A stretch of DNA of 64,000 nt from an uncultured Candidatus Binatia bacterium (GCA_965242525.1 OZ251459.1:2137515-2201514); one strand, 5' to 3'; counted from the first letter of the stretch, positions 1,000 to 51,905 are shown. The notes: generated from the letters alone by a model not told the origin. A program made the numbers and translations.

Positions 1000-1011
1000 C
1001 CCCGGGGTCAG
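996..1011. terminator. Perfect 16-nt palindrome CTGACCCCGGGGTCAG spanning both convergent stop codons (possible bidirectional hairpin)
   Basis: Read directly. The TGA of gatB (997-999) and the TCA (reverse TGA) of argJ (1008-1010) both lie inside the palindrome. There is no T-tract, so terminator function is uncertain. Confidence 0.25.

Positions 1012-2194: not shown

Positions 2195-2210
<16 letters not shown>
1008..2210 (-). CDS. argJ: Bifunctional ornithine acetyltransferase / N-acetylglutamate synthase
   Basis: 400-aa reading frame from the ATG at 2208-2210 (verified as 'cat' on the + strand). Motifs include [13 protein letters not shown], the autoprocessing site [14 protein letters not shown], and GDTSTNDT. 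Confidence 0.9.
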
Positions 2211-5674
<3,464 letters not shown>

Positions 5675-5873
5675 GGCTCAAGGATAGCGGCTACGGAGGC
5701 CACATGCAATTTGTGAGGAAGGACGCATCGAAGGGACGGGTCGCCAATGATCGGAGCTAGCCATGGTGGAAAGCGGACCAGTCTCCATGACCTCAGTGGT
5801 CTTGCGGGACGGCTGAAGGATATCGAAACCGAACTTCGGAACGTCGAGAAGGAGGTCGAGTCCGCACGCGACC

Positions 5874-6923
<1,050 letters not shown>

Positions 6924-6989
6924 CGCGCCGCCGCGGTCCGGGACGCGGGCGCCCTCCCCCTCCGACGCCCTTTCCGCCGGGAACCTGAC

Positions 6990-8075
6990 ATGTTGCTCAT
7001 CGACAACGAGACCGTAGAGGAAATCCTCGACATGAAGGGGTGCATCGCGGCCCTGGAGACCGGCTACCGGGACCTGCTGGCGCAGCGTGCGGTGTACCGG
7101 CCCCGCATCGACCTGTACGTGCCCCAGGAAGAGCCCCACCGGATGTACCGTTGGGGCACCATGGAGGGCGCCAGCCGTTCCTTCGGGGTCTTCGCCATCC
7201 GCATGAAGTCCGACATGCTGGAGTGGCCCGAGGGCCGAACCGTGGAGAAATACTGCATGGAGCCCGGGACCTACTGCGGCCTCGTGCTGGTCTTCTCCGC
7301 GCAGAACGCCGAACCCCTGGCCATCATCAACGACGGCGTCATCCAGCACATGCGGGTGGGCGCCTGCGCCGGCCTCGCGGCCCGGTACCTGGCCCGGGAG
7401 GACGCATCGGTGGTGGGGATGCTGGGCTCCGGCGGCATGGCGGAGACCTACCTCCGGGCCTTCGCCGAAGTCCGGGAACTCCGGGAGGTCAAGGTCTATA
7501 GCCCCACCCCCGCCAACCGGGAAGCCTATGCGCGCAAGATGAACGAACTCCTCGGCATACCCGTGACCCCGCGCGAGACCGTGGAGGAAGTGGTGCGGGG
7601 CTCGGACATGGTGGCCACCTGCACCGATTCGGTCAGGGTGGTGGTAGAAGAACCCGGATGGGTGGAGGACGGCGCCTTCCTCACCTGCGTCCGCAGCAAC
7701 GAATGGAACCCGAAGGTCCTCGACCGCTGCGGCCTCACCGTCAAGCTCGGGCGCGGCACCATCCATACTCTGGACGAAGGCATGCAGCGCATCGCCGGGT
7801 ACGCCTCCTACGTGGCCGGCAGCGACCGCGAGACCGCCCGCATCGTCGCTCCCGGAGTCGATCTGTTCGCCGGCCAGTACCCCTTGCTCACCGAGGTCAT
7901 GGACGGCGCCGCCCCGGGCCGGAGCAACGATTCGCAGGTGGCCTTCTTCCTGAACGACGGCACCCAGGGACTGCAATTCGCCTCGGTGGCAGGCTACGTG
8001 GTGCACCGGGCGCGGGATCTCGGGGCGGGCCGGGAGATCCCCAGGGAATGGTTCACCCAGGACATACGCGATTAG
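6990..8075 (+). CDS. Ornithine cyclodeaminase / mu-crystallin family protein
   Basis: 361 aa with Rossmann motif VVGMLGSGGMAETYLRAF and a family-like N-terminus (EEILDMKGCIAALETGY). The substrate cannot be inferred. Confidence 0.7.
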   Translation: MLLIDNETVEEILDMKGCIAALETGYRDLLAQRAVYRPRIDLYVPQEEPHRMYRWGTMEGASRSFGVFAIRMKSDMLEWPEGRTVEKYCMEPGTYCGLVLVFSAQNAEPLAIINDGVIQHMRVGACAGLAARYLAREDASVVGMLGSGGMAETYLRAFAEVRELREVKVYSPTPANREAYARKMNELLGIPVTPRETVEEVVRGSDMVATCTDSVRVVVEEPGWVEDGAFLTCVRSNEWNPKVLDRCGLTVKLGRGTIHTLDEGMQRIAGYASYVAGSDRETARIVAPGVDLFAGQYPLLTEVMDGAAPGRSNDSQVAFFLNDGTQGLQFASVAGYVVHRARDLGAGREIPREWFTQDIRD

Positions 8076-8123
8076 CCGTACGGAAACTCTCGCGGGGGAA
8101 CGGCAATCCAGGGAGAGAGACTC

Positions 8124-9113
8124 ATGCTCAAGGTGATTCCGGTGGAAGAAGCGGTGGGGATGCGCCTGGCCCACGACATTACCGAGATCATACCGGGGGG
8201 CCACAAGGGTCCCCGGTTCAAGCGGGGGCACCTGATCGCCCAAGAGGACGTGCCAAGGCTGCTGGACGTGGGCAAGGCCCACATCTACATCATGGAGCTG
8301 GCCCCGGACGAACTGCACGAAGAAGACGCCGCCCTCCGGCTGGCCCGGGCCGCCGCGGGAGGCGGCCTCAGGCTCTCGGACCCGAGCGAGGGCCGGGTCA
8401 ACCTGGTGGCGGAAGGGGACGGACTGCTGGAGGTGGACCAGGATCGGCTGTTCCGCTTCAACGAGTTGGGGGACCTGATCCTGGCTACGCTGCGTTCGGG
8501 GGAGTTCGTCCGGGAAGGCACGGTGGTGGGAGGCACGCGCACCATCCCGGTGGTGGTGAAGGAAGACTTGGCGGCCCGGGCCGAAGCCCTGTGCAAGGAC
8601 GGGCCCATCGTATCAGTGGCGGCCATGCCCGCACGGAAGGTCTTCCTGCTGGTGACCGGAAGCGAGGTCTTCACCGGCCGCATCGTGGACGGCTTCGAGC
8701 CGGTGGTGCGCAAGAAGGTGGAGCGCATGGGCTCGACCCTGGAGCCCGCGGTCCTGGCCCCGGACGACCCGGACGTCATCGCCGGCCACATCCGGGAGTT
8801 CGCCGCCGGGGGCGCCGACGTCATCCTGGTGAGCGGCGGCATGTCCGTGGACCCTGACGACCTCACCCCCGAAGGCATCCGCCGAAGCGGCGCGGACGTG
8901 GTGTCCCACGGCTTCCCGGTGCTCCCCGGGTCCATGTTCCTCATGAGCTACCTGGGAGACGTGCCGGTCCTCGGCCTGTCCGGGTGCGTCCTCCACGACC
9001 CGATCACCGTCTTCGATTTCATGCTGCCCAAACTGCTGGCGGGCGCCCGTGTCACCCGCTGCGGCATCCTGCGCATGGGCCACGGCGGACTCCAGAAGAA
9101 GCACGACCACTGA
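8124..9113 (+). CDS. Molybdopterin-binding (MoCF-biosynthesis / MoeA-CinA-like) domain protein
   Basis: 329 aa. The C-terminal half resembles the MoCF_biosynth fold (KVFLLVTGSEVFTGRIVDGF, ADVILVSGGMSVDPDDLTPEGI). The assignment is by resemblance only. Confidence 0.55.
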   Translation: MLKVIPVEEAVGMRLAHDITEIIPGGHKGPRFKRGHLIAQEDVPRLLDVGKAHIYIMELAPDELHEEDAALRLARAAAGGGLRLSDPSEGRVNLVAEGDGLLEVDQDRLFRFNELGDLILATLRSGEFVREGTVVGGTRTIPVVVKEDLAARAEALCKDGPIVSVAAMPARKVFLLVTGSEVFTGRIVDGFEPVVRKKVERMGSTLEPAVLAPDDPDVIAGHIREFAAGGADVILVSGGMSVDPDDLTPEGIRRSGADVVSHGFPVLPGSMFLMSYLGDVPVLGLSGCVLHDPITVFDFMLPKLLAGARVTRCGILRMGHGGLQKKHDH

Positions 9114-9131
9114 CACCGGACAGGCGTCAAC

Positions 9132-9158
9132 AAACGTCAATACATCGTATTGACGTTT
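9132..9158. promoter_or_regulatory. Perfect 12-bp inverted repeat (AAACGTCAATAC-atc-GTATTGACGTTT) overlapping a -35-like TTGACG; candidate operator/promoter of the RHH operon
   Basis: Read directly. TTGACG lies at 9150-9155, followed by a 17-nt spacer and TATCCA at 9173-9178. An in-frame GTG at 9186 sits 8 nt after the -10-like hexamer, which would give a near-leaderless mRNA. It could instead be a hairpin ending the upstream gene. Confidence 0.4.
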
Positions 9159-9677
9159 ACCCGTGTTTCCTGTATCCAACTCATCGTGGCGAAGACTGGA
9201 CAGTTGCAGGTTCGCGTCAGTGCGGACGAGAGGGAGCGTATCAGGCAGCGCGCGGAAAACGCGGGCATGACCGTATCCGAATGGGTGCTCAGGCAGTTGC
9301 TGCCGCCCGTCGAGGATGAGTTCCAGGGGCTTTGCCTCGGTCTTGCGGAGCGGCCCGAATTCCGCACCCACGCCCTGGCCCATCTCCATGACTTCTTCCG
9401 GCGTCTGGGCGAACGGGAATTCTCCCTGGCCGTGCGGTACCCGCCGCAGGTGGAGTTGGCGCCGTTCGAGGCAAATTACGTGGCGGCGATGGTGGAGTAC
9501 GCCGCGGTCCTCAAGGGGGCGCCGATGCCGGATTGGACCCGGGACGTGCCGCCCCTGGAGACGCCCTGGTTCGCCGCCCCCGAACGGAGCTTGCGGCTGC
9601 ATCTGCTCACGCAGTCGCCGCCGCCGTTCCGCCGGCGCAACCTGTTCGTGGACGCCAGCGTCGGGAGCCGGGCATGA
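9150..9677 (+). CDS. Ribbon-helix-helix (CopG-like) domain protein, antitoxin-like
   Basis: The N-terminal segment QLQVRVSADERERIRQRAENAGMTVSEWVLRQLL is a typical RHH motif. The stop overlaps the next gene's ATG in an ATGA junction at 9674-9677. The true start may be the GTG at 9186. Confidence 0.6.
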   Translation: MTFTRVSCIQLIVAKTGQLQVRVSADERERIRQRAENAGMTVSEWVLRQLLPPVEDEFQGLCLGLAERPEFRTHALAHLHDFFRRLGEREFSLAVRYPPQVELAPFEANYVAAMVEYAAVLKGAPMPDWTRDVPPLETPWFAAPERSLRLHLLTQSPPPFRRRNLFVDASVGSRA

Positions 9678-10240
9678 CGCCGCTGGCCCGAGAGGACATC
9701 CTCCGTTTGCTGCAACGGCTGAACGACGAGTTGGCGCGCGATGGCGTGTGCGGGGAACTCTACCTGGTCGGGGGCGCGGTGTTGTGCCTTGCCTTCGACG
9801 CTCGCCGGACGACGGTGGACCTCGACGGGTTCTTTCGTCCATCGCGCGAGATGCGTACGGCCGCGCGACGAGTCGCCGCGGCCGAAGGGCTGAACGACGA
9901 CTGGCTGAACGACAGCGCCAAGGGGTTTCTCAGTAGCAAGGGGGACTTCCGACAACATCTGGCGCTGTCCAACCTGCGCGTGCTCACGGCCAGCCCGGAA
10001 TACCTGCTGGCGATGAAGTGTCTGGCCATGCGCCTCGGCGGAGAGTTCCACGACCGGGAGGACGTCAGGTTCCTGCTCCGTTACCTGAACGTCACGCAGC
10101 AGGACGCAGCCCTGGAGATGGTGAGCCGCTACTACCCGCCGGAAAAGATCCCGCAGAAGACGTTCTACGCGCTCGCGGAAATGGTCGAAGACCTGGCGGC
10201 AGCACAGGGTGTTGCACCCGCTTCGACCGGCAAGTGTTGA
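9674..10240 (+). CDS. Minimal nucleotidyltransferase-fold protein (AbiEii/DUF6036-like), toxin-like partner
   Basis: 188 aa from the ATG verified at 9674. LYLVGGAVLCLAFDARRTTVDLDGFF matches the GG...R.T.DLD nucleotidyltransferase signature. It is translationally coupled to the RHH gene. Confidence 0.55.
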   Translation: MTPLAREDILRLLQRLNDELARDGVCGELYLVGGAVLCLAFDARRTTVDLDGFFRPSREMRTAARRVAAAEGLNDDWLNDSAKGFLSSKGDFRQHLALSNLRVLTASPEYLLAMKCLAMRLGGEFHDREDVRFLLRYLNVTQQDAALEMVSRYYPPEKIPQKTFYALAEMVEDLAAAQGVAPASTGKC

Positions 10241-10352
10241 TACTCCGTCAGGTGTAGAGCGTCGTCCGACTACAAGGGTCCGAAAGGCCGAAGTAGTAGG
10301 CGGGCCCGTCCCGTTGAACGGGTCCCTGCGATGCAACCCGGGGCCGAGGTGC

Positions 10353-10358
10353 TATACT
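10353..10358 (+). promoter_or_regulatory. Extended -10 element TGcTATACT upstream of the AAA/PD-(D/E)XK gene
   Basis: TG at 10350-10351 and TATACT at 10353-10358, only 10 nt before the ATG at 10369. No clear -35 was found. Confidence 0.3.
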
Positions 10359-10368
10359 GTTTGTCGCC

Positions 10369-11961
10369 ATGCGCTTCTTCAACACGTCGGGCCCCGTGGT
10401 CGCCGAAGACCACTACCGCATCCCGCCGCTGCAACGGGTGGATCTGGGCGAGGTCCTGGAGTTGATCCGGAGCAAGCGCTACTTCGTGCTCCATGCCCCC
10501 CGACAGACCGGCAAGACCTCCGTCCTGCTCGCCTTGCGGGACCTGCTGAACAGCGGCGCGGAGGGGGATTTCCGTTGCGTTTACGGAAACGTCGAGGCCG
10601 GTCAGGCTGCCCGGGAGGACGTGGGAGAGGCCATGCGCGCCGTCCTGGGCGAACTGGCGTCCAGGGCACTATCCTTGCACGACGAGTTCCCGGACGGCGC
10701 TTGGCCCGACATCCTCGCAAGGTCGGGTCCCCACGGAGCTCTCGGAGAGACCTTGACCCGCTGGTGTCGGGCGGACCCTCGCCCTCTGGTGCTGCTCATG
10801 GACGAGGTCGATTCCCTGGTGGGCGACACGCTCATCTCCGTGCTCCGCCAGTTGCGCGCAGGCTACGACCGGCGTCCCGAGGAGTTTCCGCACAGCGTGG
10901 TGTTGTGCGGCGTGCGTGACGTGCGCGACTACCGCATCCGGTCGAGCTCGGAGAACGCGGTGGTGGCCGGGGGCAGCGCGTTCAACATCAAGGCCGAATC
11001 CCTGCGCCTCGGGGACTTCACGGAAGCCGAAGTGCGCGCGCTGCTCAGCCAGCACACCACGGAGACCGGGCAGGCGTTCACCCCGGCGGCGCTGGATGCG
11101 GTCTGGCGGCAGACCCGCGGGCAGCCGTGGCTGGTCAACGCGCTCTGCCACCAGGCCTGCTTCCGCAACGAGGCCGGGCGCGACCGCTCCCACGCCATCA
11201 CCCACGACGACGTCCTCGACGCCCAGGAACAACTCATCCTGCGCCGGGAGACCCACCTCGACCAACTCGCCGACAAGCTCCGGGAAGACCGCGTCCGCCG
11301 GGTGGTGGAGCCGCTGCTGACCGGCGGCGAGCCCCGGTACGGTTCGCGGGACCTGGAGTACGTGCGCGACCTGGGCTTGGTCACACGGGAGTCCCCGCCG
11401 CGCATGGCCAACCCCATCTACGCCGAGGTGGTGCCGCGGGAACTGTCCCACGTGGTCCAGGACAGCCTGGAACAGGAAGTGGCCTGGTACGTGGACGCCG
11501 AGGGCGGCCTCGACATGGACAAGCTGCTCGCCGCCTTCCAGACGTTCTTCCGGGAACACTCGGAACACTGGCTGGGGCGCTTCGACTACGCCGAAGCCGG
11601 TCCGCAACTCATCCTGCAGGCATTCCTCCAGCGGGTCGTGAACAGCGACGGCCGCGTCGAGCGGGAATACGGCCTGGGAAGGGGACGAACCGACCTGCTC
11701 ATCCTCTGGCCCCGGAAAGGCCGGGAAGCACCGGAACCCGCCGTGGACAAGTTCGTCATCGAGTGCAAGGTCCTGCACAAGAGCCTGGAGCAGAGCATCC
11801 GCGAAGGCCTGGAGCAGACCGCGGGCTACATGGACCGTTGCGCCGCCCAGGCCGGCCACTTGGTGGTCTTCGACCGAAACCCGGACAGGCAGTGGGACGA
11901 AAAGATCTTCCGCCGGGACGAGTCCGTGGACGGGCGGGCGGTTACCGTGTGGGGGATGTAG
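10369..11961 (+). CDS. AAA-type ATPase with C-terminal PD-(D/E)XK nuclease-like domain
   Basis: N-terminus MRFFNTSGPVVAEDHYRIPPLQR, Walker A HAPRQTGKTS, Walker B LVLLMDEVDSL, and a C-terminal GRTDLLILWP...KFVIECKV (D...E.K) motif. Confidence 0.7.
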   Translation: MRFFNTSGPVVAEDHYRIPPLQRVDLGEVLELIRSKRYFVLHAPRQTGKTSVLLALRDLLNSGAEGDFRCVYGNVEAGQAAREDVGEAMRAVLGELASRALSLHDEFPDGAWPDILARSGPHGALGETLTRWCRADPRPLVLLMDEVDSLVGDTLISVLRQLRAGYDRRPEEFPHSVVLCGVRDVRDYRIRSSSENAVVAGGSAFNIKAESLRLGDFTEAEVRALLSQHTTETGQAFTPAALDAVWRQTRGQPWLVNALCHQACFRNEAGRDRSHAITHDDVLDAQEQLILRRETHLDQLADKLREDRVRRVVEPLLTGGEPRYGSRDLEYVRDLGLVTRESPPRMANPIYAEVVPRELSHVVQDSLEQEVAWYVDAEGGLDMDKLLAAFQTFFREHSEHWLGRFDYAEAGPQLILQAFLQRVVNSDGRVEREYGLGRGRTDLLILWPRKGREAPEPAVDKFVIECKVLHKSLEQSIREGLEQTAGYMDRCAAQAGHLVVFDRNPDRQWDEKIFRRDESVDGRAVTVWGM

Positions 11962-11994
11962 ATATCGAGAGGTCAACACAATGACCGACAGGTA

Positions 11995-12023
11995 TTGACA
12001 CTTCACGGAGTATGGAGTATAGG
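11995..12023 (+). promoter_or_regulatory. Sigma-70-like promoter of the low-GC operon (-35 TTGACA, 17-nt spacer, -10 TATAGG)
   Basis: TTGACA at 11995-12000 and TATAGG at 12018-12023, read directly. It lies in the 110-nt gap exactly where GC content drops. Confidence 0.4.
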
Positions 12024-12071
12024 CCCCGACTAACTGATGCTTGGCCGCTTTCCCATGACAGGAGTTGTACC

Positions 12072-13106
12072 GTGACAGAACACCACAAAATGCTCGAGGT
12101 GAATCAAATTGACTTCGACACTGAAAATCCCAGGATAAAAATGGCGTTGGAGAAATACGGTAGCCGTCTGAATGCCGAGCGCATTCATTTTGCCTTGCGC
12201 TCCGCTACCGAAGGTTCCAGCGGTACTTCGTCCTACTCCAGCCTGAGAGATTCAATACGCTCTAGTCATGGGGTCATCGCGCCAATCATCGTAAGACCTA
12301 AAGGCCACAGCTACGTCTGCATCGACGGAAATACCCGCCTGGCGATCTACAAACAGTTTCAAAGAGAAGAAATAGAAGGAGATTGGAGCAAAATCAAAGC
12401 CATTGTTCTCGATCATGCCGAACAGCGCGATATCGAAACCGTCCGTGTATCGGCACACCTGGTTGGCGCCCGAGAATGGCCTGCCTACGAAAAGGCAAGG
12501 TATCTTCATTATCTCCGTAATCAGCAGTGTATGGATTACAGCGAAATGATAGCTCTCTGTGGCGGCAACAAAAACGAGATCGAACGTCAGATCGACGCAT
12601 ACCACGACATGAACTCATATTACCGAGATAAGGTGGACGACACCGCTTTTCGTATCGACCGTTATAGCGGATTCGTAGAACTTCAACGGCCGCAGGTCAA
12701 GCAAGCCATTTTTGACGCAGAATTGGACCTAGAGGATTTTGGCGAGTGGATCCGCGATGGCAAAATATACCGCTTGGAGGATGTCCGCAAGTTGCCGAAA
12801 ATCCTTCGAGACGATGAAGCCAAGCGGGTTTTCCTTGAAGGTGGACCTCGCTCAATAGAAGACGCCATGAAGGTTCTCGATCAGAGAACAGGGATCGGGG
12901 ACTCTACGGACAAGGGGCAGACCAGAGTAGAACATGCCACCATCTACGAACTCGCGGACGCGCTCAGCCGGCGAATCAATGACATGCCCTATTCGCAAGT
13001 ACGGGAATTGCGGGAGAAGACTGACGACGACACGGCAGATCAAATTACGCGATTAGAAGATCTATCCGTCAGGCTACGTAATTTGCTGAACGATGTCACA
13101 GAGTGA
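12072..13106 (+). CDS. ParB/Srx-fold N-terminal domain protein (ParB-like 1)
   Basis: INQIDFDTENPR...PIIVRPKGHSYVCIDGNTRLAIY matches the ParB N-domain pattern (DGN.R...A). The preferred start is the GTG at 12072, preceded by AGGAG 7 nt upstream. The ORF-track ATG at 12012 and the ATG at 12090 are alternatives. It is a paralog of 15008..16051. Confidence 0.7.
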   Translation: MTEHHKMLEVNQIDFDTENPRIKMALEKYGSRLNAERIHFALRSATEGSSGTSSYSSLRDSIRSSHGVIAPIIVRPKGHSYVCIDGNTRLAIYKQFQREEIEGDWSKIKAIVLDHAEQRDIETVRVSAHLVGAREWPAYEKARYLHYLRNQQCMDYSEMIALCGGNKNEIERQIDAYHDMNSYYRDKVDDTAFRIDRYSGFVELQRPQVKQAIFDAELDLEDFGEWIRDGKIYRLEDVRKLPKILRDDEAKRVFLEGGPRSIEDAMKVLDQRTGIGDSTDKGQTRVEHATIYELADALSRRINDMPYSQVRELREKTDDDTADQITRLEDLSVRLRNLLNDVTE

Positions 13107-13536
13107 AACACACAGAAACCTGGTCCTCCAGGTCGCAAGAGCAATTGAGGACCGTTATGCCCAAATATCCGTCATTACCGATTTGCAGCAGAACCCTGGA
13201 GATACAGTGCCACCAATGATCTGCGGCCACCGCCCTGATGTTTACGCCTACGAAGAAGTACAGCGCCTCTGCATCGTTGCAGAGGCCAAGACCGATTCGG
13301 ACCTCGACAATCTTCATACGCAACGCCAGTTGATGGCCTTTATCAACTATCTTAGCGACAGAGAAAAGAGCTTGTTCATCTTGTCGGTAAAGGGCACCAA
13401 GTCCGACCACGGGAAGACTCTGCTGCGGTTCACTCATCGACTTCTGGCTGTAAAGAACGTGCCTCTTGAAATTTTCGATGGTCATGATTTCTGGTCCTTC
13501 AACCTACAGGACGAAACTACGTGGCATTTACTTTGA
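13093..13536 (+). CDS. Small PD-(D/E)XK-like (restriction-endonuclease fold) protein
   Basis: 147 aa. GHRPDVYAYEEVQRLCIVAEAKT fits the D-x(n)-E-x-K arrangement. It overlaps the upstream gene by 14 nt and the downstream gene by 16 nt. Confidence 0.45.
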   Translation: MSQSETHRNLVLQVARAIEDRYAQISVITDLQQNPGDTVPPMICGHRPDVYAYEEVQRLCIVAEAKTDSDLDNLHTQRQLMAFINYLSDREKSLFILSVKGTKSDHGKTLLRFTHRLLAVKNVPLEIFDGHDFWSFNLQDETTWHLL

Positions 13537-15020
13537 GAAAACCACCCAGCCTGGTGGCAAGACACGAAGCCTATGCCTATCAGCTCGATGCTTTAAGAGC
13601 CGTAAAGGCGCTTCCTTATGCCGCCATATTCCACGAGCAAGGGCTCGGTAAAACAAAGATAGCTATTGACTTGATGTTGCTGTGGCTATCCAATGACTTA
13701 GTGGACACTGTATTTGTGATTACAAAAAAGAGCTTGGTTCAAAATTGGTTTGATGAACTTACCTCTCACTCATACGTAACTCCTCGAATTCTTTCCGATA
13801 ACCGTCGCGAGAACAGCCTCGCACTAAACTCACCTGTATTGATCTATATTATGAACTACGAAGCAATCTCGGCAAATCTTCATTTGATCGAGGATTTTCT
13901 CATTACCTGTAGGGTTGGCGCAATCCTTGACGAAAGTCACAAGATCAAAAACCCGCAAGCAAGGGCATCGATCTGCCTTCACTCTATCGCCGACAAATTC
14001 TCGCGTAAGGTGATAATGACGGGAACGCCAGTGGCGAACCGTCCTTATGATCTTTGGTCGCAAGTCAAGTTTTTGGACGGAGGACAGTCTCTCGGGTCTT
14101 CTTTTGCTGATTTCAAAGCAACCTTTGATCTTCCCGGTCAGCCAAGTTGCACACAGGAATACAGTGAACGACTATCCAATATCATTGACAAGATTAGACA
14201 TTTCTCGGTGCGAGAGACAAAGCGTACCGTAGAATTGAGCCTACCCGACAAGACAATACTAACTCATTTCGTGAACATGGCGCCTCGCCAAGCGGTAATA
14301 TATGACTCCTACGTGACCGAAGCGGCCTACGAGATCAACCTTGGGGACGACCTGATTCTGGACAACGCCGAAGACATCCTGAAACGCCTGTTACGCCTGG
14401 TGGAGTGCGCCTCTAATCCTTTCTTGGTTGACAAGAGATACTCTGAGGTGCCAGGGAAGTTCTCCGAACTCTTGAAGCTTCTCCAGGAAATTGACTTACG
14501 AGCACATAAAGTGGTTTTGTGGACAGGGTTTGTTGATAATGTAGAATGGATAACTGCCCAATTGAAGGAGTTTTCGCCCTTGAAGGTTCATGGTCGTATG
14601 TCCATTGAGCAACGGAACCAGTCCATAAGCAGATTCAAAACCCACCAGAAACACCGTGTCTTTGTAGCCACGCCTGGCTCTGCAAAGGAAGGCTTAACTT
14701 TGACAGTAGCCAATCATGCTGTTTTCTACGATCGAAGCTTCAGTCTTGATGATTACCTCCAGGCGCAAGACCGAATTCATAGAATCTCTCAAACTGAAGA
14801 CTGCTATGTACACAACTTGATCGCCAAACAAACCGTGGATGAGTGGGTGGATGCTTTGCTAAACGCAAAACATATCGCTGCACAGCTATCTCAAGGTGAT
14901 ATTTCTCAAGCTGAGTTTGAGTCTTCCTTTACCTTCAATTTAGCCGAAATACTGGCAGACATATTAACTTCCAGGTCGCTCGCTTCCAGGAGTCAGGAGA
15001 ACGGAAAATGGCCGAAATAA
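13521..15020 (+). CDS. SNF2-family ATPase/translocase (core-only, 499 aa)
   Basis: Motif I HEQGLGKT, motif II ILDESHKIKN, motif III MTGTPVANRPYDLWS, and motif VI YLQAQDRIHRISQT. GTG start at 13521. Confidence 0.85.
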   Translation: MAFTLRKPPSLVARHEAYAYQLDALRAVKALPYAAIFHEQGLGKTKIAIDLMLLWLSNDLVDTVFVITKKSLVQNWFDELTSHSYVTPRILSDNRRENSLALNSPVLIYIMNYEAISANLHLIEDFLITCRVGAILDESHKIKNPQARASICLHSIADKFSRKVIMTGTPVANRPYDLWSQVKFLDGGQSLGSSFADFKATFDLPGQPSCTQEYSERLSNIIDKIRHFSVRETKRTVELSLPDKTILTHFVNMAPRQAVIYDSYVTEAAYEINLGDDLILDNAEDILKRLLRLVECASNPFLVDKRYSEVPGKFSELLKLLQEIDLRAHKVVLWTGFVDNVEWITAQLKEFSPLKVHGRMSIEQRNQSISRFKTHQKHRVFVATPGSAKEGLTLTVANHAVFYDRSFSLDDYLQAQDRIHRISQTEDCYVHNLIAKQTVDEWVDALLNAKHIAAQLSQGDISQAEFESSFTFNLAEILADILTSRSLASRSQENGKWPK

Positions 15021-16051
15021 AGATCCTCAAGGAATCGGTGCAGGTAGTCAAGGAAGACTATGTGCATATCTACGAACTGAAGTTCCTGAAAGACAACCCT
15101 CGCGTATACGCGTGTACACATGAGTACCCGAATTTCGATGACTTGATGGAAGAGCAACAGCAAGACGTCATTTTCGATAAACTAAAGGAAGAGACGAGCG
15201 TCAAAAATCTCCGTCCTGAGATAGAACGGCATGGGGGCCTTATGGAGCCGATACTGGTTCGGCTCGATACACGCCAAGTCATTGAAGGCAATTCTCGCCT
15301 CGCTGTATACCGCCTGCTGTACGAAGGGACGAGGGAGAGCGACTGGGAATATATTCCGTGCAGCATGGTAAGTGGGCTAACAGAGCGTCAACAGGCCGCT
15401 TTTCTCAACGAAGTCCATGTGAAGGGCAAGACTCAATGGTCCCCCTACGAAAAGGCCAACTTCGCCTATGTCCGCAGGGAACGAGGTTGGAGTCTCAGTG
15501 ACATCGCCGAACTTTTCGGAGAGTCAGTAAATACGATTAGAACCCGAGTAAAGGTCATTGAAACCATGAAAGGGAACTCGGATGGCACAAAATCTCATTT
15601 CAGTCATTACGATGTACTAGTTCGAATACCTGCTATAGAGAAGGAGCTTTCTCAAAATGACGAGCTGCGCAATCTTCTTTACGCGGAGATCAAGAAGATC
15701 GATCCCAGAGACGACAAGAGCGCGAATGAGGACGAAACTGGCGAAGAGGACGAAAGCGGTTTCACCGCGCAGGAACTCAGGAGGAAACTGCCCGCGATCA
15801 TCGAGAAACCTAAGGTTTTGCGAAAATATATCGAAGGTGAAATAGATTTGGACGAAGGCTACCAGCGTGCGAAGATCAGCAACGCGGAAACCCGAGTTCG
15901 GAAAGCAAAAGGACTTTTGGAGGACGTTTCTCGAGAAGAGGTGACAAGGCTCGAACAGAATCGCTTCAATGCGTTCAAACAGGATGTACGGAGGATATCC
16001 CGCGTAGTGGAGCGCCTCAATGAGATCACAAAGGACCGTGAGACACCATGA
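15008..16051 (+). CDS. ParB/Srx-fold N-terminal domain protein (ParB-like 2)
   Basis: LKFLKDNPR...PILVRLDTRQVIEGNSRLAVYRLL. It aligns with ParB-like 1 beyond the N-domain (W.YEKA..., HTH-like SLSDIAELFGESVNTIRTRV). The ATG at 15008 is preceded by GGAGA. Confidence 0.7.
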   Translation: MAEIKILKESVQVVKEDYVHIYELKFLKDNPRVYACTHEYPNFDDLMEEQQQDVIFDKLKEETSVKNLRPEIERHGGLMEPILVRLDTRQVIEGNSRLAVYRLLYEGTRESDWEYIPCSMVSGLTERQQAAFLNEVHVKGKTQWSPYEKANFAYVRRERGWSLSDIAELFGESVNTIRTRVKVIETMKGNSDGTKSHFSHYDVLVRIPAIEKELSQNDELRNLLYAEIKKIDPRDDKSANEDETGEEDESGFTAQELRRKLPAIIEKPKVLRKYIEGEIDLDEGYQRAKISNAETRVRKAKGLLEDVSREEVTRLEQNRFNAFKQDVRRISRVVERLNEITKDRETP

Positions 16052-17688
16052 TTCCGTACAATGTACTGCTAGTCGAGCCCGGATACTTCAACAAGTATCC
16101 GCCGCTTGGGTTAATGAAGTTGGCAGCATATCATGGCGCTCGCGGTCGTGGCGACCGGGTCCGCTTCGTCAAAGGTGAGGATCGTGAAGTGTCGCTGGAG
16201 TCGTGGGATCGAGTTTATGTAGCTACATTGTTCAGTTTTGAATGGGCGCGTACTGCCGCGGCAATTGATTTTGCCATCCGGACCGTGCGCGGCCAGACAG
16301 AACGGGTATTTGTAGGCGGCATCGCCGCATCGCTTATGCATGAGCACTTTGAGAACGAACCACGATGGTCGGGTGTCCGTTTTATTAAAGGACTATTGAC
16401 TGATCCGCCGGCAGTTGCGCTGCGTTTATCAGCAGAAGATTGTGATTTTGGCTTTGACGACCACCAGGGACCCCCTATCGAGGAGTTGATTCCAGACTAC
16501 TCCATTCTCGATCAGATCGAATATTCCTATCCTGTCCGAGACGCCTACTTTGGATACGCTTCACGTGGTTGCGTTCGGAAATGTGCGTTCTGTGGCGTTC
16601 CTAAACTGGAAGGCGCTCAGCGCGAAATGCCTTCCCTTACTTCCTTGGTCAAAGGAATCGAAGATGCATACGGACCCAAGAAGGACCTGGTGTTGATGGA
16701 TAATAACGTCACGGCATCCCTGCGATACAAGGAGATAATTGCTGAAATCCGGGATCTCGGCTTCACGCCAGGCGCTAGGCTCGAACGCAGTGGGCGACCG
16801 CCGATCAAGCGACGCGTGGATTTCAATCAAGGCGTTGACGCGAGGATTCTTGCCAAGTCCCCGCTCTTTCTTAGGGAAATGGCAAAAATCTGTATCAGTC
16901 CTCTTCGTATCGCCTTTGACCACCTTGGGGTACGAAAAGTATATGAGACTTCTGTTCGAATGGCAGCACACCACGGAATCACCTCCTTATCAAACTATAT
17001 GCTCTATAACTTTATGGACACTCCCGCAGATCTATACGACCGCATGCGTTTGAATATTACCCTCAATAACGACTTGGGCATCCGTATTTGGTCATTTCCG
17101 ATGCGTTATCAGCCAGTCTATCTCAAGGACCGTTCCCACGTAGGCAAAAATTGGACGAGATACCAACTACGCTCCTTTCAGATTATGCTGCAGGCGACTC
17201 GAGGGGTTGTTAGCGGCAACCCTTCCTTCTTCATGCGGGCTTACGGAGAAGACAAACGCGACTTCGAACAACTTTTGAGTTTGCCACATGCTTTCATTTT
17301 TCACCGTGATTACTACGAGAGAGGACCAGGACGAGGCATCCGAGATGACTATGAGACGGCACGACGGCGCCTTTCCAAGTCTCAAGAACAGGAATTGCTT
17401 GGTTTGCTGGAAGGCTCGGACAGTGTACCGGGTTTTCGAAGGGATCGGCTTCGCTCTTTGGTAGCCGACCCTGGCATTGACACATCTATTCGTAGAGTCA
17501 TTCGATTTCACTTGCTGGATACAAAAGAGAAACCGCAGAACCCCATTCTGCCGCTCTTCCCCGACCTTAATCCTGATCCAGCTTTCCCTGACGACGATGA
17601 ACTTGTCGAGGACGCCGGACTCTTTGATCACGAACACGCCTTGGAACAATCTGAAAAGGCCATCAAAGGAAACCATCATGGTCAATGA
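16048..17688 (+). CDS. Radical SAM protein with B12-binding-like N-terminal domain
   Basis: ASRGCVRKCAFCGV contains the CxxxCxxC motif. The N-terminus VLLVEPGYFNKYPPLGLMKLAAY resembles the B12-binding-domain radical SAM class. ATGA overlap with the upstream gene at 16048-16051. Confidence 0.8.
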   Translation: MIPYNVLLVEPGYFNKYPPLGLMKLAAYHGARGRGDRVRFVKGEDREVSLESWDRVYVATLFSFEWARTAAAIDFAIRTVRGQTERVFVGGIAASLMHEHFENEPRWSGVRFIKGLLTDPPAVALRLSAEDCDFGFDDHQGPPIEELIPDYSILDQIEYSYPVRDAYFGYASRGCVRKCAFCGVPKLEGAQREMPSLTSLVKGIEDAYGPKKDLVLMDNNVTASLRYKEIIAEIRDLGFTPGARLERSGRPPIKRRVDFNQGVDARILAKSPLFLREMAKICISPLRIAFDHLGVRKVYETSVRMAAHHGITSLSNYMLYNFMDTPADLYDRMRLNITLNNDLGIRIWSFPMRYQPVYLKDRSHVGKNWTRYQLRSFQIMLQATRGVVSGNPSFFMRAYGEDKRDFEQLLSLPHAFIFHRDYYERGPGRGIRDDYETARRRLSKSQEQELLGLLEGSDSVPGFRRDRLRSLVADPGIDTSIRRVIRFHLLDTKEKPQNPILPLFPDLNPDPAFPDDDELVEDAGLFDHEHALEQSEKAIKGNHHGQ

Positions 17689-19186
17689 AGCAAGTGCTAT
17701 GACGACGACGACACGGCAGTCACTTGACTCGATTGGCAGCGACATTCTCAACCTAATTACCCTTGGAATGTACAATAACCCTCTTGCCATCTATCGCGAG
17801 TACATCCAAAACGCTGCGGATGCGCTTGCACGTTCTGGAAGTCGCACTGACGGCCAAGTGGCAATCCATTTTGACAAGTCCGCATCGTCCATAACGATTC
17901 GAGACACCGGACCAGGCCTATCACCGAAGTCCGCAAGACGCGCACTTTTGCCCATTGCCAAGAGCGAAAAGGAATTCCAGGCTGAACGCGGTTTTCGCGG
18001 CATCGGTCGCTTGTCCGGACTGGCTTTCGGCAAATCCGTCACCTTTCTTACGCGAGCACGAGGAGACCAGCCAGCAACAAGTGTCAAATGGGACGGACTG
18101 AAACTTCGGACAAACATTGACCAGCGCAAACCGATTGAACGGGTACTCAAGGAAGCTGTTACGGTAGAACCGCTAACAAGACCAGATTTCCCGCCACACT
18201 TCTTCGAGGTCCAAGTGAACGGTATCGCGCGACACGCAGCGGGACTGATACTCAATCGAGACGCGGTCCGGACGTACATTGGCGAAGTATGTCCTGTCCC
18301 TATTTCCCGATCCTTCCCCTTTGCAACCCGGATCCTCGCTTTATTCCAAGCGGAAGCTCCTTTATTCGCGCTGAACCTTGTCTTGGATGGCACCCCCGGC
18401 CCTGTCACACGCCCCTTTGACGACGCGATTCGATTTTCGGATGACAAGCTAGACAAGTTCACGGAGTTTCAGGAAATCAGGATCCCATCGGTAGACCGAG
18501 AAGGACATGCGGCAGTTGGCTGGATTGCACATTCAAATTATTTGGGCGCTATTCCCAAGGAACACGCCATTCGAGGTGTTCGAGCACGTGCGGGCAACAT
18601 ACAGATTGGGAACGAAGCTGTCTTTGATCACCTTTTTTCTGACGATCGCTTTAATCGCTGGTGTGTTGGCGAACTCCATATCATGGACTCGCGTATCATC
18701 CCCAATGCTCGCCGTGACTACTTTGAGCCGGGTCCACACATCCGAAACCTGGAGAACCAGCTTATCGCTGTATTTCGAGAAGTAGTTGCGCGATGCAGGA
18801 AGGCATCCGCAGAACGCAACAGGGAACGAAGGTTGCAGTCCGGATTGCGGGAAATCGAGGATGCTTATCACTTGGCACAATCCGGCTATTTGTCCATGGG
18901 AGATTCTCAAGCCTTGATCGCGCGCGGTCTCAACCGTCTCCAAGACTTCCGGAACAACTGGAGCGAGATGAACGCCTGTGCAAAGACGGAATTGGAAAAC
19001 CTTGAATCGAACCTTCAAAAATTCCAGCCTTCACATAGTCATCTACCCGTGGCTAATTTGTCAAAGTTGGAAGCGGCAACGTACAGAAAGCTTTTTCACG
19101 CTTTGGTAGAGACGTCCCCTTCCCCGCGCATTGCCAAAGAAACAATCGAAGCTGTCCTTGTCCACCTACAGCGCAGGGTCGCATGA
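17678..19186 (+). CDS. GHKL-superfamily ATPase (HATPase_c_3 / MORC- or Hsp90-like)
   Basis: 502 aa from the ATG verified at 17678. N-box REYIQNAADAL, G1 IRDTGPGL, G2 ERGFRGIGRLSGLAFG. It overlaps the radical SAM gene by 11 nt. The ORF-track start at 17477 is rejected because it lies inside the radical SAM gene. Confidence 0.75.
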   Translation: MVNEASAMTTTTRQSLDSIGSDILNLITLGMYNNPLAIYREYIQNAADALARSGSRTDGQVAIHFDKSASSITIRDTGPGLSPKSARRALLPIAKSEKEFQAERGFRGIGRLSGLAFGKSVTFLTRARGDQPATSVKWDGLKLRTNIDQRKPIERVLKEAVTVEPLTRPDFPPHFFEVQVNGIARHAAGLILNRDAVRTYIGEVCPVPISRSFPFATRILALFQAEAPLFALNLVLDGTPGPVTRPFDDAIRFSDDKLDKFTEFQEIRIPSVDREGHAAVGWIAHSNYLGAIPKEHAIRGVRARAGNIQIGNEAVFDHLFSDDRFNRWCVGELHIMDSRIIPNARRDYFEPGPHIRNLENQLIAVFREVVARCRKASAERNRERRLQSGLREIEDAYHLAQSGYLSMGDSQALIARGLNRLQDFRNNWSEMNACAKTELENLESNLQKFQPSHSHLPVANLSKLEAATYRKLFHALVETSPSPRIAKETIEAVLVHLQRRVA

Positions 19187-19199
19187 GAGGAAACGGCGT

Positions 19200-20681
19200 T
19201 CAGAGTTTCTCTACGCGGCTTGCCCTCGAACGCAGAAAGTTGAAATCGGCGTCGTCACCGACATCCGGCATCGCGAGCAAGCGTTCGATAAAAGTCTCCG
19301 GCTGACGCTGCTTCCGCTGTGTCTTCAAGCCGCCCCGCCATTCCAGCAGGACGACTTCTTCTCGAAGCTGTTCGCCGGTCACCGTCGAAGGGCGTGTCCG
19401 AAAGAGGTCGATGCCCATGACCCGGTAGTGCAACGACCGGGCCAAGTCGGCCAGGAGTCGGCCCGTGGGGATACGGACCCGCAGATACGACGCCTGGTCG
19501 CCGACCACGTAGGCGAGCCTGGCCCCCGGCTTGAGGACGGCGCGGAGCGACGCGAGGTGTTTCGCCATGCCGCCGAAGTAGAGCCGCGTGACGCGCGGAT
19601 ACAACCGCTCGAAGCCGGAGGTCTTGCCCAACTCGATACGGCGCTTCTCGATGGCTTCGGCGATGTCCCGTATCTCGGCATGGTCGGCAACCTCACGATC
19701 GTCCGTGTCCGCCTTATAGACGCCCCGGGTGTTGGACCGGATCAGGTTCCGTTTCATGGACCGCAATTCCTGCCGGTCGCGCACCAGTCCCAGGATGACG
19801 GACTCCAACCGTGTGGTGCGCGTGTAGTCCTTTTCGTTGGGATACGGCGGGGAGGTGATCACGGTATCGACGGACCCCGGCTCCAGCGCTCGATGGATCG
19901 CGCGGGCGTCCGCCTCCACGACCCGGGACGGCGCGTCCGTCCGGCCCTTGAGGAGTTCCAGGTCGCCGACGATGGTTCGGAAGCAGTCGAGCCAGGCGTC
20001 GACGGCCGGCGCGTCGTCCTTGATCCGGCCCACGCCGACTTCGGGACCGAACTTCAGGTTCCCGATGCGCAGCACCAGCGCGTTGGCAAGCGCCAGGCGG
20101 CCATAGGGCCGCAGTTGCGGCCGGTCGTGCCGGTCCATGGCGTCCAGCAGGGTCAGCGTCTTGTGGAGGGGCAGCGGACTGATGGAGTCCTTCAGCAGCA
20201 GTTTCGACCGGTCGGGGGGAAGACCCTGCAACACGGGTGGTCCGCTCCCGTTCGCGGCGAAGAGCGGAAGCCCCGCGGCCTCCCGGATGCCCTGCCGTTC
20301 CAGCGTCCTTCGCGCCGCCGCCGCAACCCGACGGGAATAGTCCGAAAGCGCCGCCGGGTCGGCCGACCAATCGACCTTCACCGAACTCGCAAAAGACCCC
20401 ATGGGGTTCGACTCGACGCCCACGCTGGGAATGCCGAGTTTCTTGCACTCCACCAACGTCGTGCCCGTGCCGCAGAAGGGGTCCAGGACCGTATGGGAGC
20501 GGTCCACGCCGAGCCGTTCCATGTAGTCCCTTACCAAGTGGGGCGGGAACGACAGGACGAACCGATACCATTGATGGGCCGGACGGTCTTCAGGCCGCAG
20601 CCTGTTCCGGTCGCCTTGGGTTCCGCCGGTGTCGGCAACCGCGGCCCGGCCGCTGCGCGTATCGGAAATCAGATCCGCCAT
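19200..20681 (-). CDS. DNA methyltransferase (motif I before motif IV SPPY; N6-adenine or N4-cytosine type)
   Basis: LDPFCGTGTTLVECKKLG (AdoMet-binding motif) and VDTVITSPPYPNEKDY (catalytic motif). The ATG at 20679-20681 is verified as 'cat'. The gene has host-like high GC and its stop lies 13 nt from the GHKL gene's stop. Confidence 0.75.
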   Translation of the reverse strand: MADLISDTRSGRAAVADTGGTQGDRNRLRPEDRPAHQWYRFVLSFPPHLVRDYMERLGVDRSHTVLDPFCGTGTTLVECKKLGIPSVGVESNPMGSFASSVKVDWSADPAALSDYSRRVAAAARRTLERQGIREAAGLPLFAANGSGPPVLQGLPPDRSKLLLKDSISPLPLHKTLTLLDAMDRHDRPQLRPYGRLALANALVLRIGNLKFGPEVGVGRIKDDAPAVDAWLDCFRTIVGDLELLKGRTDAPSRVVEADARAIHRALEPGSVDTVITSPPYPNEKDYTRTTRLESVILGLVRDRQELRSMKRNLIRSNTRGVYKADTDDREVADHAEIRDIAEAIEKRRIELGKTSGFERLYPRVTRLYFGGMAKHLASLRAVLKPGARLAYVVGDQASYLRVRIPTGRLLADLARSLHYRVMGIDLFRTRPSTVTGEQLREEVVLLEWRGGLKTQRKQRQPETFIERLLAMPDVGDDADFNFLRSRASRVEKL

Positions 20682-20745
20682 CGGAGTTCCTGGCCGAACG
20701 GGTCGAGGGAGTCCAGCCTTTCCATGGCAACACGTGCGAGAACCG

Positions 20746-21459
20746 TCAGTCCACCGGAACGCAGGTGACCTCCACCCGTCCGTCACCGTGCAGTCGAACC
20801 GCGTTGACCGTGCCGGCGTAGGTCGGAGACCCCGAGTAGTAGGCGGGCACCCCGTCTTCGCCCACGCGCACGGCGCGGTTCCAGTGGCCCAGAGCCACGT
20901 AGTCGGCGCGGCTGGCGGCCAAGTTCTCCTGCCGGATCAGCCACGAGCCCAGCAGCAGGCCCGCCCGGGGCGCGTCCTCCACGTAATGGCCGTGGGCCAC
21001 CGCCAACTGCCAGCGGGTGCGCCGCTCGGGCGGCTCGGGCAGGGGCATCATGTCCAGGTAGTCCACGTGGGGACGGCCCCATACCTCCAGGTCCAGCTCG
21101 GGGAAGCCGCTCCGGTCCTCGGTGAGGCCCAGCACGCGCACGTTACCCGCGCCGGCGAACTCGGACCGGCGATAGACCGAATCAGGAGTCAGGGGGTCGT
21201 GGTTGCCCGGCAGGACCACGATGGGGAGGCCGGAGTCGGCCATGACTCCGGCCGCGTCCTCGATGAACCGGGGACCCTGGCGGTTGTGGTCGAAGGTGTC
21301 CCCCGCCAGGATCACCAAGTCGGCGCCCTGGGCGCTCGCAATCGAGAGCACCTGTTGCAGCACCGGCAGGTTGCCGGAATCGTCTTCGTTCAGGACGCTG
21401 TCCGCGCCCAGGTGGAGGTCCGATGTGTGGACGACGAGGACTTCACGCGGTGCGTTCAT
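20746..21459 (-). CDS. Calcineurin-like metallophosphoesterase (SbcD/Mre11-like fold)
   Basis: VVHTSDLHLG, LILAGDTFDH, VVLPGNHD and AVAHGH motifs. Start verified at the ATG at 21459. Confidence 0.75.
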   Translation of the reverse strand: MNAPREVLVVHTSDLHLGADSVLNEDDSGNLPVLQQVLSIASAQGADLVILAGDTFDHNRQGPRFIEDAAGVMADSGLPIVVLPGNHDPLTPDSVYRRSEFAGAGNVRVLGLTEDRSGFPELDLEVWGRPHVDYLDMMPLPEPPERRTRWQLAVAHGHYVEDAPRAGLLLGSWLIRQENLAASRADYVALGHWNRAVRVGEDGVPAYYSGSPTYAGTVNAVRLHGDGRVEVTCVPVD

Positions 21460-47024: not shown

Positions 47025-47036
47025 GGGCCACCGAAG

Positions 47037-47516: not shown

Positions 47517-47586
47517 ACACCGGCATCGCCGGGAACCTGAAGCGTCCGGGATCCAGCAATTGAGGACAGGATCGAGAAATCCGGCA

Positions 47587-49347: not shown

Positions 49348-49364
49348 AGGGGAGAGATTTCGCC

Positions 49365-50926: not shown

Positions 50927-51127
50927 GCCATCCCATGAAAAACCAATCGAAGTATTCCAGTTCCGAGACCATCGCCGAGACTTTTCGATATCTGGGACTT
51001 GACGATCCAAAACTGCGCAGTCGATTACGAGGGTTCTCCAAACCGGGGATATCGCCTCCTCGAGTCGAGAGACGCAGCAGCAAACTTGTCACTCGGAACA
51101 ACACCGCGCCAGATCAAGGAGACGATC

Positions 51128-51854: not shown

Positions 51855-51905
51855 TCGCCTTGGGGAATCGCAAAGCGGCGCTTCGGCAATCCCGGAGATG
51901 GTACA

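Follow-up and report, generated by a model that had tools for sequence, protein, structure and literature searches.

What do two ParB-like proteins do on either side of a motor gene and a nuclease candidate? The question is raised by a locus in the genome of an uncultured Candidatus Binatia bacterium (GCA_965242525.1 OZ251459.1:2137515-2201514), lying within the 64,000-nucleotide stretch that was analyzed here and is referred to as the window. A preliminary description of that stretch had placed two ParB/Srx-type proteins, here named ParB-A and ParB-B, around nuclease-like and SNF2 genes, and both the arrangement and the coordinates proved exact (Table 1); the operon is also, as had been proposed, defense-like in its gene make-up and its neighborhood. 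ParB folds are now seen as general nucleotide-gated switches, few of whose roles beyond chromosome segregation have been worked out. In this locus two full-length ParB paralogues are fixed beside a motor and a nuclease candidate, and are coupled to a radical S-adenosylmethionine (radical SAM) and GHKL family of more than 1,600 sequence clusters. Our analyses of the resulting six-gene system indicate that it looks like a new anti-invader or DNA-marking system.

Paralogy of ParB-A and ParB-B and their ParB layout

Direct comparison of the two window proteins by BLASTP gave 28% identity over 128 aa (E 6e-14). A profile-profile comparison of their orthologue families, with profiles built from 35 (ParB-A) and 36 (ParB-B) orthologues, gave a probability of 98.5% (E 2.3e-15, 235 columns) and paired residues 6-258 of ParB-A with residues 20-269 of ParB-B. 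The paralogy claimed in the preliminary description was thereby borne out, and the shared core and downstream blocks it had listed (a Trp-containing segment, W.YEKA and a helix-turn-helix (HTH)) are real and invariant in both families. In the joint alignment, the features common to both families without exception are NPR, GN(T/S)RLA, a Trp (W105 of ParB-A), the H..G...W..YExA block and the Gly of the HTH, the HTH following the H..G...W..YEKA block in both paralogues. Neither paralogue looks like a dead copy because both keep this whole set of shared invariant residues. At the DNA level, the W..YEKA blocks (12475-12496 and 15435-15456) are identical at 19 of 22 positions, in genes whose protein products have an overall identity of merely ~20–28%.

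Domain searches gave matches of varying strength. ParB-A scored 18.9 bits against Pfam ParB_N (PF02195), below the gathering score of 26.3, ParB-B had no match to that family, and an orthologue of ParB-A from the gut showed an unmarked PF02195 match. ParB-like partition families among the PHROGs were matched at E 1e-8 by ParB-A and 4e-10 by ParB-B. Searches of the PDB with the A and B family profiles returned nothing useful and a merged N-terminal profile reached ParB weakly (E 0.04–0.7), and therefore a comparison of folds was needed. AlphaFold (AF2) models were obtained with a predicted local distance difference test (pLDDT) score of 75 for ParB-A and 87 for ParB-B. For both models Foldseek retrieved ParB, Noc, KorB and Spo0J chains comprising the NTPase fold and the HTH (E ~1e-5, probability 1.0), those retrieved with ParB-A including ParB, Noc and pNOB8 ParB at E 3e-5 to 5e-4. 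The structure-comparison values, as tabulated, were 9.6 for sulfiredoxin, 9.4 for the pNOB8 ParB N-domain, 9.3 for KorB, 7.7 for the KorB DNA-binding domain and 7.5 for Spo0J. The N-terminal domain of both models has the fold of the ParB/Srx superfamily, as had been predicted, and the models match ParB, Noc and KorB. Their secondary-structure layouts agree through to the C-terminus, the last 90 residues being helical with identical helix boundaries, and ParB-B has an acidic disordered insert at residues 235-249. These comparisons show that ParB-A and ParB-B are paralogues, each with an NPR- and GxxR-bearing ParB/Srx nucleotide-binding fold, a KorB/Spo0J-like HTH and a helical C-terminus, an arrangement that appears to be the full ParB layout.

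The nucleotide-binding region required one correction. It had been stated that GxxR is replaced by GN(T/S)RLA in both proteins, and this is wrong as worded, GN(T/S)R being itself a GxxR sequence; it is correct insofar as the arginine-rich catalytic version has gone, with the loss of its Glu and one Arg. In a hidden Markov model alignment to solved ParBs, ieGNsRLA falls on iaGERRLr with the G and the last R kept. G86-N-T-R89 of ParB-A and G94-N-S-R97 of ParB-B are invariant in their respective families, so the GxxR P-motif of Box II is retained. N87 and N95 align to the Glu E93 of Myxococcus xanthus ParB (an Ala in entry 7o0n, E93A), and the first Arg of GERR is replaced by Thr in ParB-A and Ser in ParB-B. 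The NPR motif presumably stands where the canonical QPR sits, judging by its position and from prior knowledge. On this evidence, the catalytic residues of the canonical CTP-dependent clamp, namely the Glu of GERRxRA and the Gln of the QPR stretch, appear to be absent from both proteins. The retained GxxR is a nearly invariant P-motif, whose R-to-A mutant serves as a non-binding control (PMC12704722).

Two gene units of the cassette

To the four genes from ParB-A to ParB-B the cassette adds a radical-SAM-type enzyme and a GHKL ATPase. Pairwise-distance matrices of the six proteins from 41 complete cassettes and the window were correlated at r 0.79–0.89 within the set of ParB-A, small protein, SNF2 and ParB-B, at r 0.93 between radical SAM and GHKL, and at r 0.61–0.75 between the two gene sets. 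ParB-A, the small protein, SNF2 and ParB-B are thus shown to form a unit whose four genes are inherited and evolve together. Within that block, the mirror-tree comparison of these matrices added no signal for the A/B pair to that of the four-gene module (partial r 0.52, versus 0.57 for ParB-A and SNF2) and is uninformative on a heterodimer.

The second unit consists of the radical SAM and GHKL genes, in some versions preceded by a gene for a DGQHR-domain protein, and is shown to be usually joined to the ParB unit and also to occur alone or behind other helicase modules. On the Roseomonas mucosa plasmid p2-AD3, the ParB-bracketed four genes and the DGQHR/radical SAM/GHKL trio form convergent operons, whereas on Rhizobium leguminosarum WSM1325 pR132505 all seven genes (RLEG_RS34150-34120) stand in one row. 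On Novosphingobium aromaticivorans pNL1 the trio (SARO_RS17520-17530) is found without the ParB unit, facing a gene for a 769-aa DGQHR protein. In gut contigs the radical SAM and GHKL genes end another operon (loci L089-L091 and L093-L094, ~1-12500), which encodes a UvrD-like helicase, a 347-aa protein, a 1150-aa DEAD helicase, a DUF1998/MZB protein and a NERD helicase. This gut operon is a DISARM/Druantia-like module, with radical SAM in a position that one might expect a methyltransferase to occupy; its 347-aa protein was tried as a ParB relative and is not one. Elsewhere the radical SAM and GHKL genes lie upstream of ParB-A (L053, L075/76), and five-gene versions of the cassette without GHKL exist.

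The 350-aa DGQHR protein, encoded directly before the radical SAM gene in alphaproteobacterial plasmids, scored 152 bits against TIGR03187 and matched DpdB at E 3e-17, and had no similarity to the A/B profile detectable at the sequence level. Neither ParB-A nor ParB-B matched the DGQHR family (TIGR03187) in NCBIfam. Several further genes recur beside these units. A protein of ~770 aa with a DGQHR/DndB domain lies next to the cassette or the radical SAM module in L022, L024, L048, L075, L085/86 and pNL1 (12183-14492 in L096, which is pNL1; 16187-18499 in L085/L086); its copies are mostly 55–86% identical, ~30% in L024, in unrelated hosts, and it may be an additional component. A ~640-aa PIN-like protein is found with a GHKL paralogue (~29% identity to the cassette GHKL) in L007, L055, L060, pNL1 and pR132505 (4090-7643 in L096 and 12218-15734 in L097), in parallel with the radical SAM/GHKL pair. 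A gene for a spore-photoproduct-lyase-like or other radical SAM protein lies immediately upstream of ParB-A in two unrelated lineages (7834-8922 in L082-L084; 7876-8844 in L085/L086).

Distribution of the cassette and age of the duplication

Searches found 821 homologues of ParB-A and 622 of ParB-B, nearly all of them unnamed. A genome scan with one genome per species returned 78 loci; since its patterns were peptides specific to the window's clade, the habitat bias of these loci is partly technical. Nearly all are metagenome-assembled genomes (MAGs), many from sponge-linked lineages (Poribacteria, Poriferihabitaceae and Spongiihabitans), and the other carriers belong to Nitrospirales, Latescibacterota, Binatia, Acidobacteriota, Gemmatimonadota, Nitrospinota, Chloroflexota, Thermodesulfobacteriota, Bdellovibrionota, and the Alpha- and Gammaproteobacteria. 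ParB-A in these loci is mostly 50–71% identical to that of the window (full range 42–71%). Both paralogues are present in 60 of the 78 loci, the four genes from ParB-A to ParB-B are contiguous in 55, and all six genes occur in the canonical order in 45. Close relatives of the cassette are almost confined to sponge- and coral-associated MAGs of at least 12 phyla, which suggests a habitat-wide exchange of genes, with the technical bias of the scan again to be borne in mind.

Distant six-gene copies were identified in contigs of gut Firmicutes, where a single radical SAM cluster has 1,704 member sequences, and further copies on plasmids of Rhizobium, Mesorhizobium, Bradyrhizobium and Roseomonas, some of them conjugative. 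The RefSeq names of the plasmid genes are generic (hypothetical protein, ParB N-terminal domain-containing protein, DEAD/DEAH box helicase, radical SAM protein, ATP-binding protein). The system is thus both common in human-gut Firmicutes and spread among sponge-associated phyla, and its presence on plasmids of cultivable rhizobia and Novosphingobium makes it directly testable.

Across the distant versions, identities are 36–69% between ParB-A proteins, 27–58% between ParB-B proteins and 17–23% between A and B. ParB-A and ParB-B are therefore separate orthologous lineages in distant cassettes, and their duplication predates the spread of the system. The preliminary description had the pair duplicated and diverged within one operon; the two are indeed paralogues, but judging from these identities the duplication is ancient rather than local.

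The copies also differ in integrity. Depending on the locus, decayed versions retain ParB-A alone, have a split ParB-B or have lost the small gene; loci with a decaying cassette are L082-L084 (10035-13021), L015, L031, L033, L043, L044, L061, L063 and L064. A further one, L036, has undergone an internal deletion that left ParB-A fused next to the gene for GHKL. Neighbors in other loci include AbiEii, RHH, SocA/Panacea, Fic, DUF4926/DUF433, methyltransferases, toxin-antitoxin and Abi genes as well as insertion sequence (IS) elements. The whole cassette is shown by these data to be a horizontally mobile island, and its distribution, decay and neighbors are the pattern of a mobile accessory immune island.

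The other proteins of the cassette

Alignment of 28 orthologues of the small protein showed H7, D30, P48, D49, E64 and T67 to be invariant and K66 nearly so. The family (28 members) had no significant match in Pfam, the PDB profile search, PHROGs or PADLOC. The SNF2 protein has intact motifs, which are conserved across 64 orthologues, and clear Pfam matches to SNF2-rel_dom (E 5e-30) and Helicase_C (E 5e-16); its likeness to ZorD, DpdE and DrmD lies in their helicase cores, the ZorD models being the best PADLOC match (E 2e-47).

In the radical SAM protein, C175, C179 and C182 are invariant and there is no second conserved Cys triad. Its N-terminal region is B12-binding/flavodoxin-like, a B12-binding-like region being also seen in a relative. 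The window protein scored 19.1 bits against Pfam Radical_SAM, below the cut-off of 29.5 that its relatives reach, and its match to a radical SAM family of the PHROGs (PHROG 9298, E 7e-38) places it in the superfamily. Similarity to named enzymes is limited to weak RimO/MiaB-like matches. The family has 1634 cluster representatives, and the gene is the best conserved of the cassette, with a mean pairwise distance of 0.33 as opposed to 0.48–0.53 for ParB-B, the small protein and GHKL. Longer relatives have a C-terminal extension that was considered as a fused GHKL domain and is not GHKL. Phages encode radical SAM relatives of ~22–40% identity (MT836743.1; KP836355.1, Marinitoga camini virus 1; and MW660583.1, a Bacteroides LoVEphage), which could be phage-borne defense or a counter-measure that copies a host mark. 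The GHKL ATPase, whose orthologues are 471–503 aa long, matched Pfam HATPase_c_3 (E 1e-11), an HSP90-like family in NCBIfam and HtpG in the PDB (E 9e-5).

A tentative mechanism and its alternatives

How might these components work together? Our tentative reading, to which we assign a probability of roughly 0.45, is that the ParB pair would act as nucleoside triphosphate (NTP)-gated clamps that direct the SNF2 protein and the nuclease at foreign DNA, with the radical SAM unit supplying a mark or an effector. Judging from ParB, Noc, KorB and DpdB, ParB-A and ParB-B may form NTP-gated DNA clamps, either as homodimers or as an A/B heterodimer, which would load on DNA through their HTH domains. Hydrolysis of the nucleotide would probably be slow, or another nucleotide would be used, because the catalytic Glu of GERR is an Asn. 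Once loaded, the clamps would call in the SNF2 translocase and the small candidate nuclease, or license them, and DNA recognized as foreign would be destroyed. The radical SAM/GHKL unit would be an exchangeable partner that most likely marks host DNA and is less likely to be an effector. Self-marking is favored because of the DpdB/DndB-like partner of that unit, the analogy being with DpdA/DpdB and DndB-E; to modify DNA, DpdA requires the ParB-like ATPase DpdB (PMC10164549). The effector alternative suggests itself because of the extreme conservation of the radical SAM protein and the parallel with the PIN-like/GHKL pair.

Several observations weigh against this reading. The nucleotide specificity of ParB folds is unpredictable from sequence (PMC12704722), and the small protein is a candidate PD-(D/E)xK nuclease from a single feature, the motif P48-D49...E64-x-K66. 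No PADLOC model matches the system, whose matches there are to the SNF2 domain and, weakly, to ParB domains, and the conserved genes of the cassette include neither a methyltransferase nor any other enzyme known for self-marking. When the upstream 250 nt of 43 cassettes were searched for a parS- or operator-like motif, the k-mers found were common to close relatives only. In L026, L032 and L059, ParB-B stays with radical SAM and GHKL and not with SNF2, and the borders of the modules are thus not absolute. Finally, the PIN-like/GHKL pair in five loci is as compatible with an effector role of radical SAM as with a modifying one.

A more elaborate form of the clamp reading, and a rather improbable one, has the (DGQHR)/radical SAM/GHKL unit writing an unknown radical-SAM-dependent DNA mark that would be read by an A/B heterodimeric NTP-gated sliding clamp, which would in turn license SNF2 and the nuclease. 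If it were true, sponge symbionts, gut Firmicutes and rhizobial plasmids would share a restriction-modification logic in which ParB clamps and radical chemistry take the place of methyltransferases. A radical SAM protein that marks DNA would mean a new type of DNA modification and a new form of self/non-self discrimination, and one that acts as an effector would mean a new immune mechanism based on radical SAM. In both cases, the paired ParBs are a natural setting in which to ask whether ParB clamps can function as heterodimers.

The roles of the two units could also be divided differently. It is conceivable, though we consider it unlikely, that the ParB pair senses infection and that radical SAM/GHKL is the effector, either making a toxic or chain-terminating nucleotide as viperins do or inflicting radical damage on nucleic acids. 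The exceptionally low divergence of the radical SAM protein is what a universal small-molecule substrate would produce, and radical-SAM defense effectors are known, for example in the Ophion system (bioRxiv 10.1101/2025.09.30.679545), but the window protein has no detectable similarity to viperins, its weak resemblance being to RimO/MiaB. Also in favor of this division, radical SAM and GHKL attach to at least two unrelated helicase modules, and the pairing of a GHKL paralogue with a PIN-like, nuclease-type protein in five loci would suit GHKL as a general controller of effectors. Against it, the ParB unit already has candidate effectors of its own in the SNF2 motor and the nuclease, and the DpdB/DndB-like DGQHR protein that directly precedes radical SAM on alphaproteobacterial plasmids is a type of partner known from DNA-modification modules. 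Somewhat less likely still is that one or both ParB-like proteins are themselves enzymes, either ParB-fold nucleases, like Osa and the pNOB8 ParB N-domain, or NTP-consuming toxins, like ToxB. ParB folds with ATPase toxin activity have been documented (bioRxiv 10.64898/2026.05.05.722872). Such a role is also favored by H..G...W..YE.A, which stands in place of the canonical Box III with an invariant His (H129 of ParB-A, H137 of ParB-B) and an acidic residue that is conserved; the Glu of YEKA, however, is not kept in the gut orthologues of ParB-A (YAKA). Moreover, both proteins keep the HTH and the long C-terminal helical region of clamp-forming ParB, Noc and KorB, which ToxB, Srx and SerK are without, and the genes that separate the two encode a motor and a dedicated candidate nuclease.

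We give little credence to the remaining two explanations. One or both proteins could be mere transcriptional regulators of KorB/DndB type: the ParB superfamily includes the regulators KorB, VirB and DndB, the operon begins with ParB-A, and a TTGACA-17 nt-TATAGG element lies just upstream of that gene (11995-12023). That element, however, went unscored in the consensus promoter scan, and the near-invariance of the ParB-A HTH across phyla, together with the lack of a shared motif upstream of the 43 cassettes, argues against a simple autoregulator and also against a cassette-borne parS. That almost every copy retains two such proteins, which co-evolve with SNF2 and the small protein, exceeds what regulation would need. 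Equally improbable is a cassette that serves maintenance, repair or epigenetic functions of mobile elements rather than immunity, with ParB-like proteins for DNA handling. Although copies are found on plasmids and beside genes of the type carried by integrative and conjugative elements (ICEs) and prophages (DUF932, RadC, ERF, ParA), most are chromosomal islands without plasmid or phage backbones, no ParA gene is encoded in any cassette, and 50,697 phage records contain no member of the ParB-A family. The chemistry of radical SAM proteins is also that of the repair enzyme spore photoproduct lyase, and genes for proteins like it or for other radical SAM proteins lie upstream in L082-86, but the usual neighbors of the cassette are typical of defense islands and its many decayed copies are as expected of costly accessory immunity.

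Relationship to known systems

The closest structural counterparts of ParB-A and ParB-B are the ParB/Spo0J, Noc and KorB clamps, which gave the best structural matches and with which they share an N-terminal ParB fold followed by an HTH and the retained GxxR. The cassette differs from these clamps in having no ParA partner and no parS-like site, in GN(T/S)R for GERR, in the H..G...W..YE.A block that its ParBs carry in place of the canonical Box III ENLQRE, and in its fixed pair of paralogues, placed on either side of an SNF2 motor and a candidate nuclease.

Among defense systems, Dpd (DpdA/DpdB/DpdC plus DpdD-K) is a large multi-gene system that uses the ParB-superfamily protein DpdB for modification and the SNF2-type DpdE for restriction (PMC10164549). 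The cassette SNF2 matches DpdE models and the plasmid versions of the cassette carry a DpdB-like DGQHR protein; however, the cassette is without the tRNA-guanine transglycosylase (TGT)/DpdA, DpdC and preQ0 genes, its candidate modifier is an uncharacterized radical SAM protein with a GHKL ATPase, and the ParB proteins of the window are not of the DGQHR/DGQQR type. In Dnd and Ssp (DndB, SspE, DndFGH), ParB-superfamily proteins couple nucleotide binding to the marking of DNA or the sensing of marks, and the modules can be uncoupled (PMC10853773). The cassette differs in being without DndA, DndC, DndD, DndE and SspABCD, and in the absence of a TIGR03187 match for its two ParBs. Its likeness to DISARM and to ZorD of Zorya lies in an SNF2 motor with a nuclease of restriction-endonuclease fold, which in the cassette is a candidate from its motif, as well as in the DrmA/DrmB-like helicase/DUF1998 genes beside radical SAM/GHKL in the gut contigs. 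Against this, only the helicase core matches, ZorABC, DrmABC and DrmM are missing, and the nuclease candidate of the cassette is a separate protein of 147 aa.

A full component set of Zorya, Dpd, DISARM, PD-Lambda-5 or PDC-M38 was not found in the cassette with PADLOC-DB v2. The weak domain matches of ParB-A/ParB-B in that database were PDC-M38A (E 2e-6) and PD-Lambda-5_A (E 5e-5), and radical SAM and the small protein had no match in it. The full-text literature that was searched, which included a 2025 survey of ParB-fold diversity, with subscription-only papers outside its scope, contained no paired ParB paralogues with SNF2, radical SAM and GHKL.

The island in the window

In the window, the cassette is a low-GC island of 7.2 kb (11962-19199) whose composition profile is ~49–52% GC as compared to 67–70% in the surrounding genome. 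GC at third codon positions is 0.50–0.59 in the cassette open reading frames and 0.8–0.96 in the neighboring genes. The island exactly fills the gap between two host genes, one for an AAA/PD-ExK protein and one for a DNA methyltransferase, reaching from stop to stop, and contains six co-directional genes: ParB-A, the PD..ExK-motif protein, SNF2, ParB-B, radical SAM and the GHKL ATPase (Table 1). Every junction between them has a 4–16 nt overlap, and the six genes therefore form one translationally coupled operon.

Table 1. Positions in the window of the cassette genes, their motifs and the neighboring host genes
Feature	Position	Strand	Remarks
ParB-A	12072-13106	+	344 aa; GTG start behind AGGAG; length equals that of orthologues
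NPR motif, ParB-A	12126-12134
GNTRLA, ParB-A	12327-12344
H..G...W..YEKA block, ParB-A	12456-12497		HLVGAREWPAYEKA
Small PD..ExK-motif protein	13093-13536	+	147 aa
RPD motif, small protein	13231-13239
EAKT motif, small protein	13282-13293
SNF2-family ATPase/translocase	13521-15020	+	499 aa
GLGKT motif, SNF2	13641-13655
DESH motif, SNF2	13929-13940
QAQDRIHR motif, SNF2	14760-14783
ParB-B	15008-16051	+	347 aa
NPR motif, ParB-B	15095-15103
GNSRLA, ParB-B	15287-15304
H..G...W..YEKA block, ParB-B	15416-15457		HVKGKTQWSPYEKA
Radical-SAM-type enzyme	16048-17688	+	546 aa
CxxxCxxC motif, radical SAM	16570-16593
GHKL (Hsp90/MutL-type) ATPase	17678-19186	+	~495-502 aa; start uncertain, 17678 or 17699
N-box EYIQNAADA, GHKL	17798-17824
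DTGPG motif, GHKL	17903-17917
AbiEii-like gene	9533-10240		Host-GC neighbor of the island
AAA ATPase	10369-11961		Ends in PD..ExK-like motif (DLLILWP...IECK); host-GC neighbor
DNA methyltransferase, N6/N4-type	19200-20786	opposite to cassette	Host-GC neighbor

The island apparently landed in a pre-existing defense spot. Its sharp low-GC bounds point to a recent horizontal acquisition. A search of the island ends for att-like direct repeats or inverted repeats gave only short matches at chance level, the island has no integrase and no tRNA, and a megablast comparison of the whole island with plasmids gave no match. The scan for promoters and terminators was not above shuffled expectation.

Two other features of the window deserve mention. 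A second lower-GC region with defense-type genes extends from 45678 to 53147 and encodes an AAA_15/AAA_21 protein with DUF3696, a Schlafen AlbA_2/HATPase_c_4 protein, a type I restriction S subunit, an SDH-type ClpP-like protease and another AAA_21 ATPase. In addition, secA lies ~6 kb upstream of the cassette in the window (2195-5674), and also directly downstream of the cassette in a deltaproteobacterial MAG (L082-L084, 16225-19035); this double occurrence of secA near the cassette could reflect either coincidence or a common insertion neighborhood.

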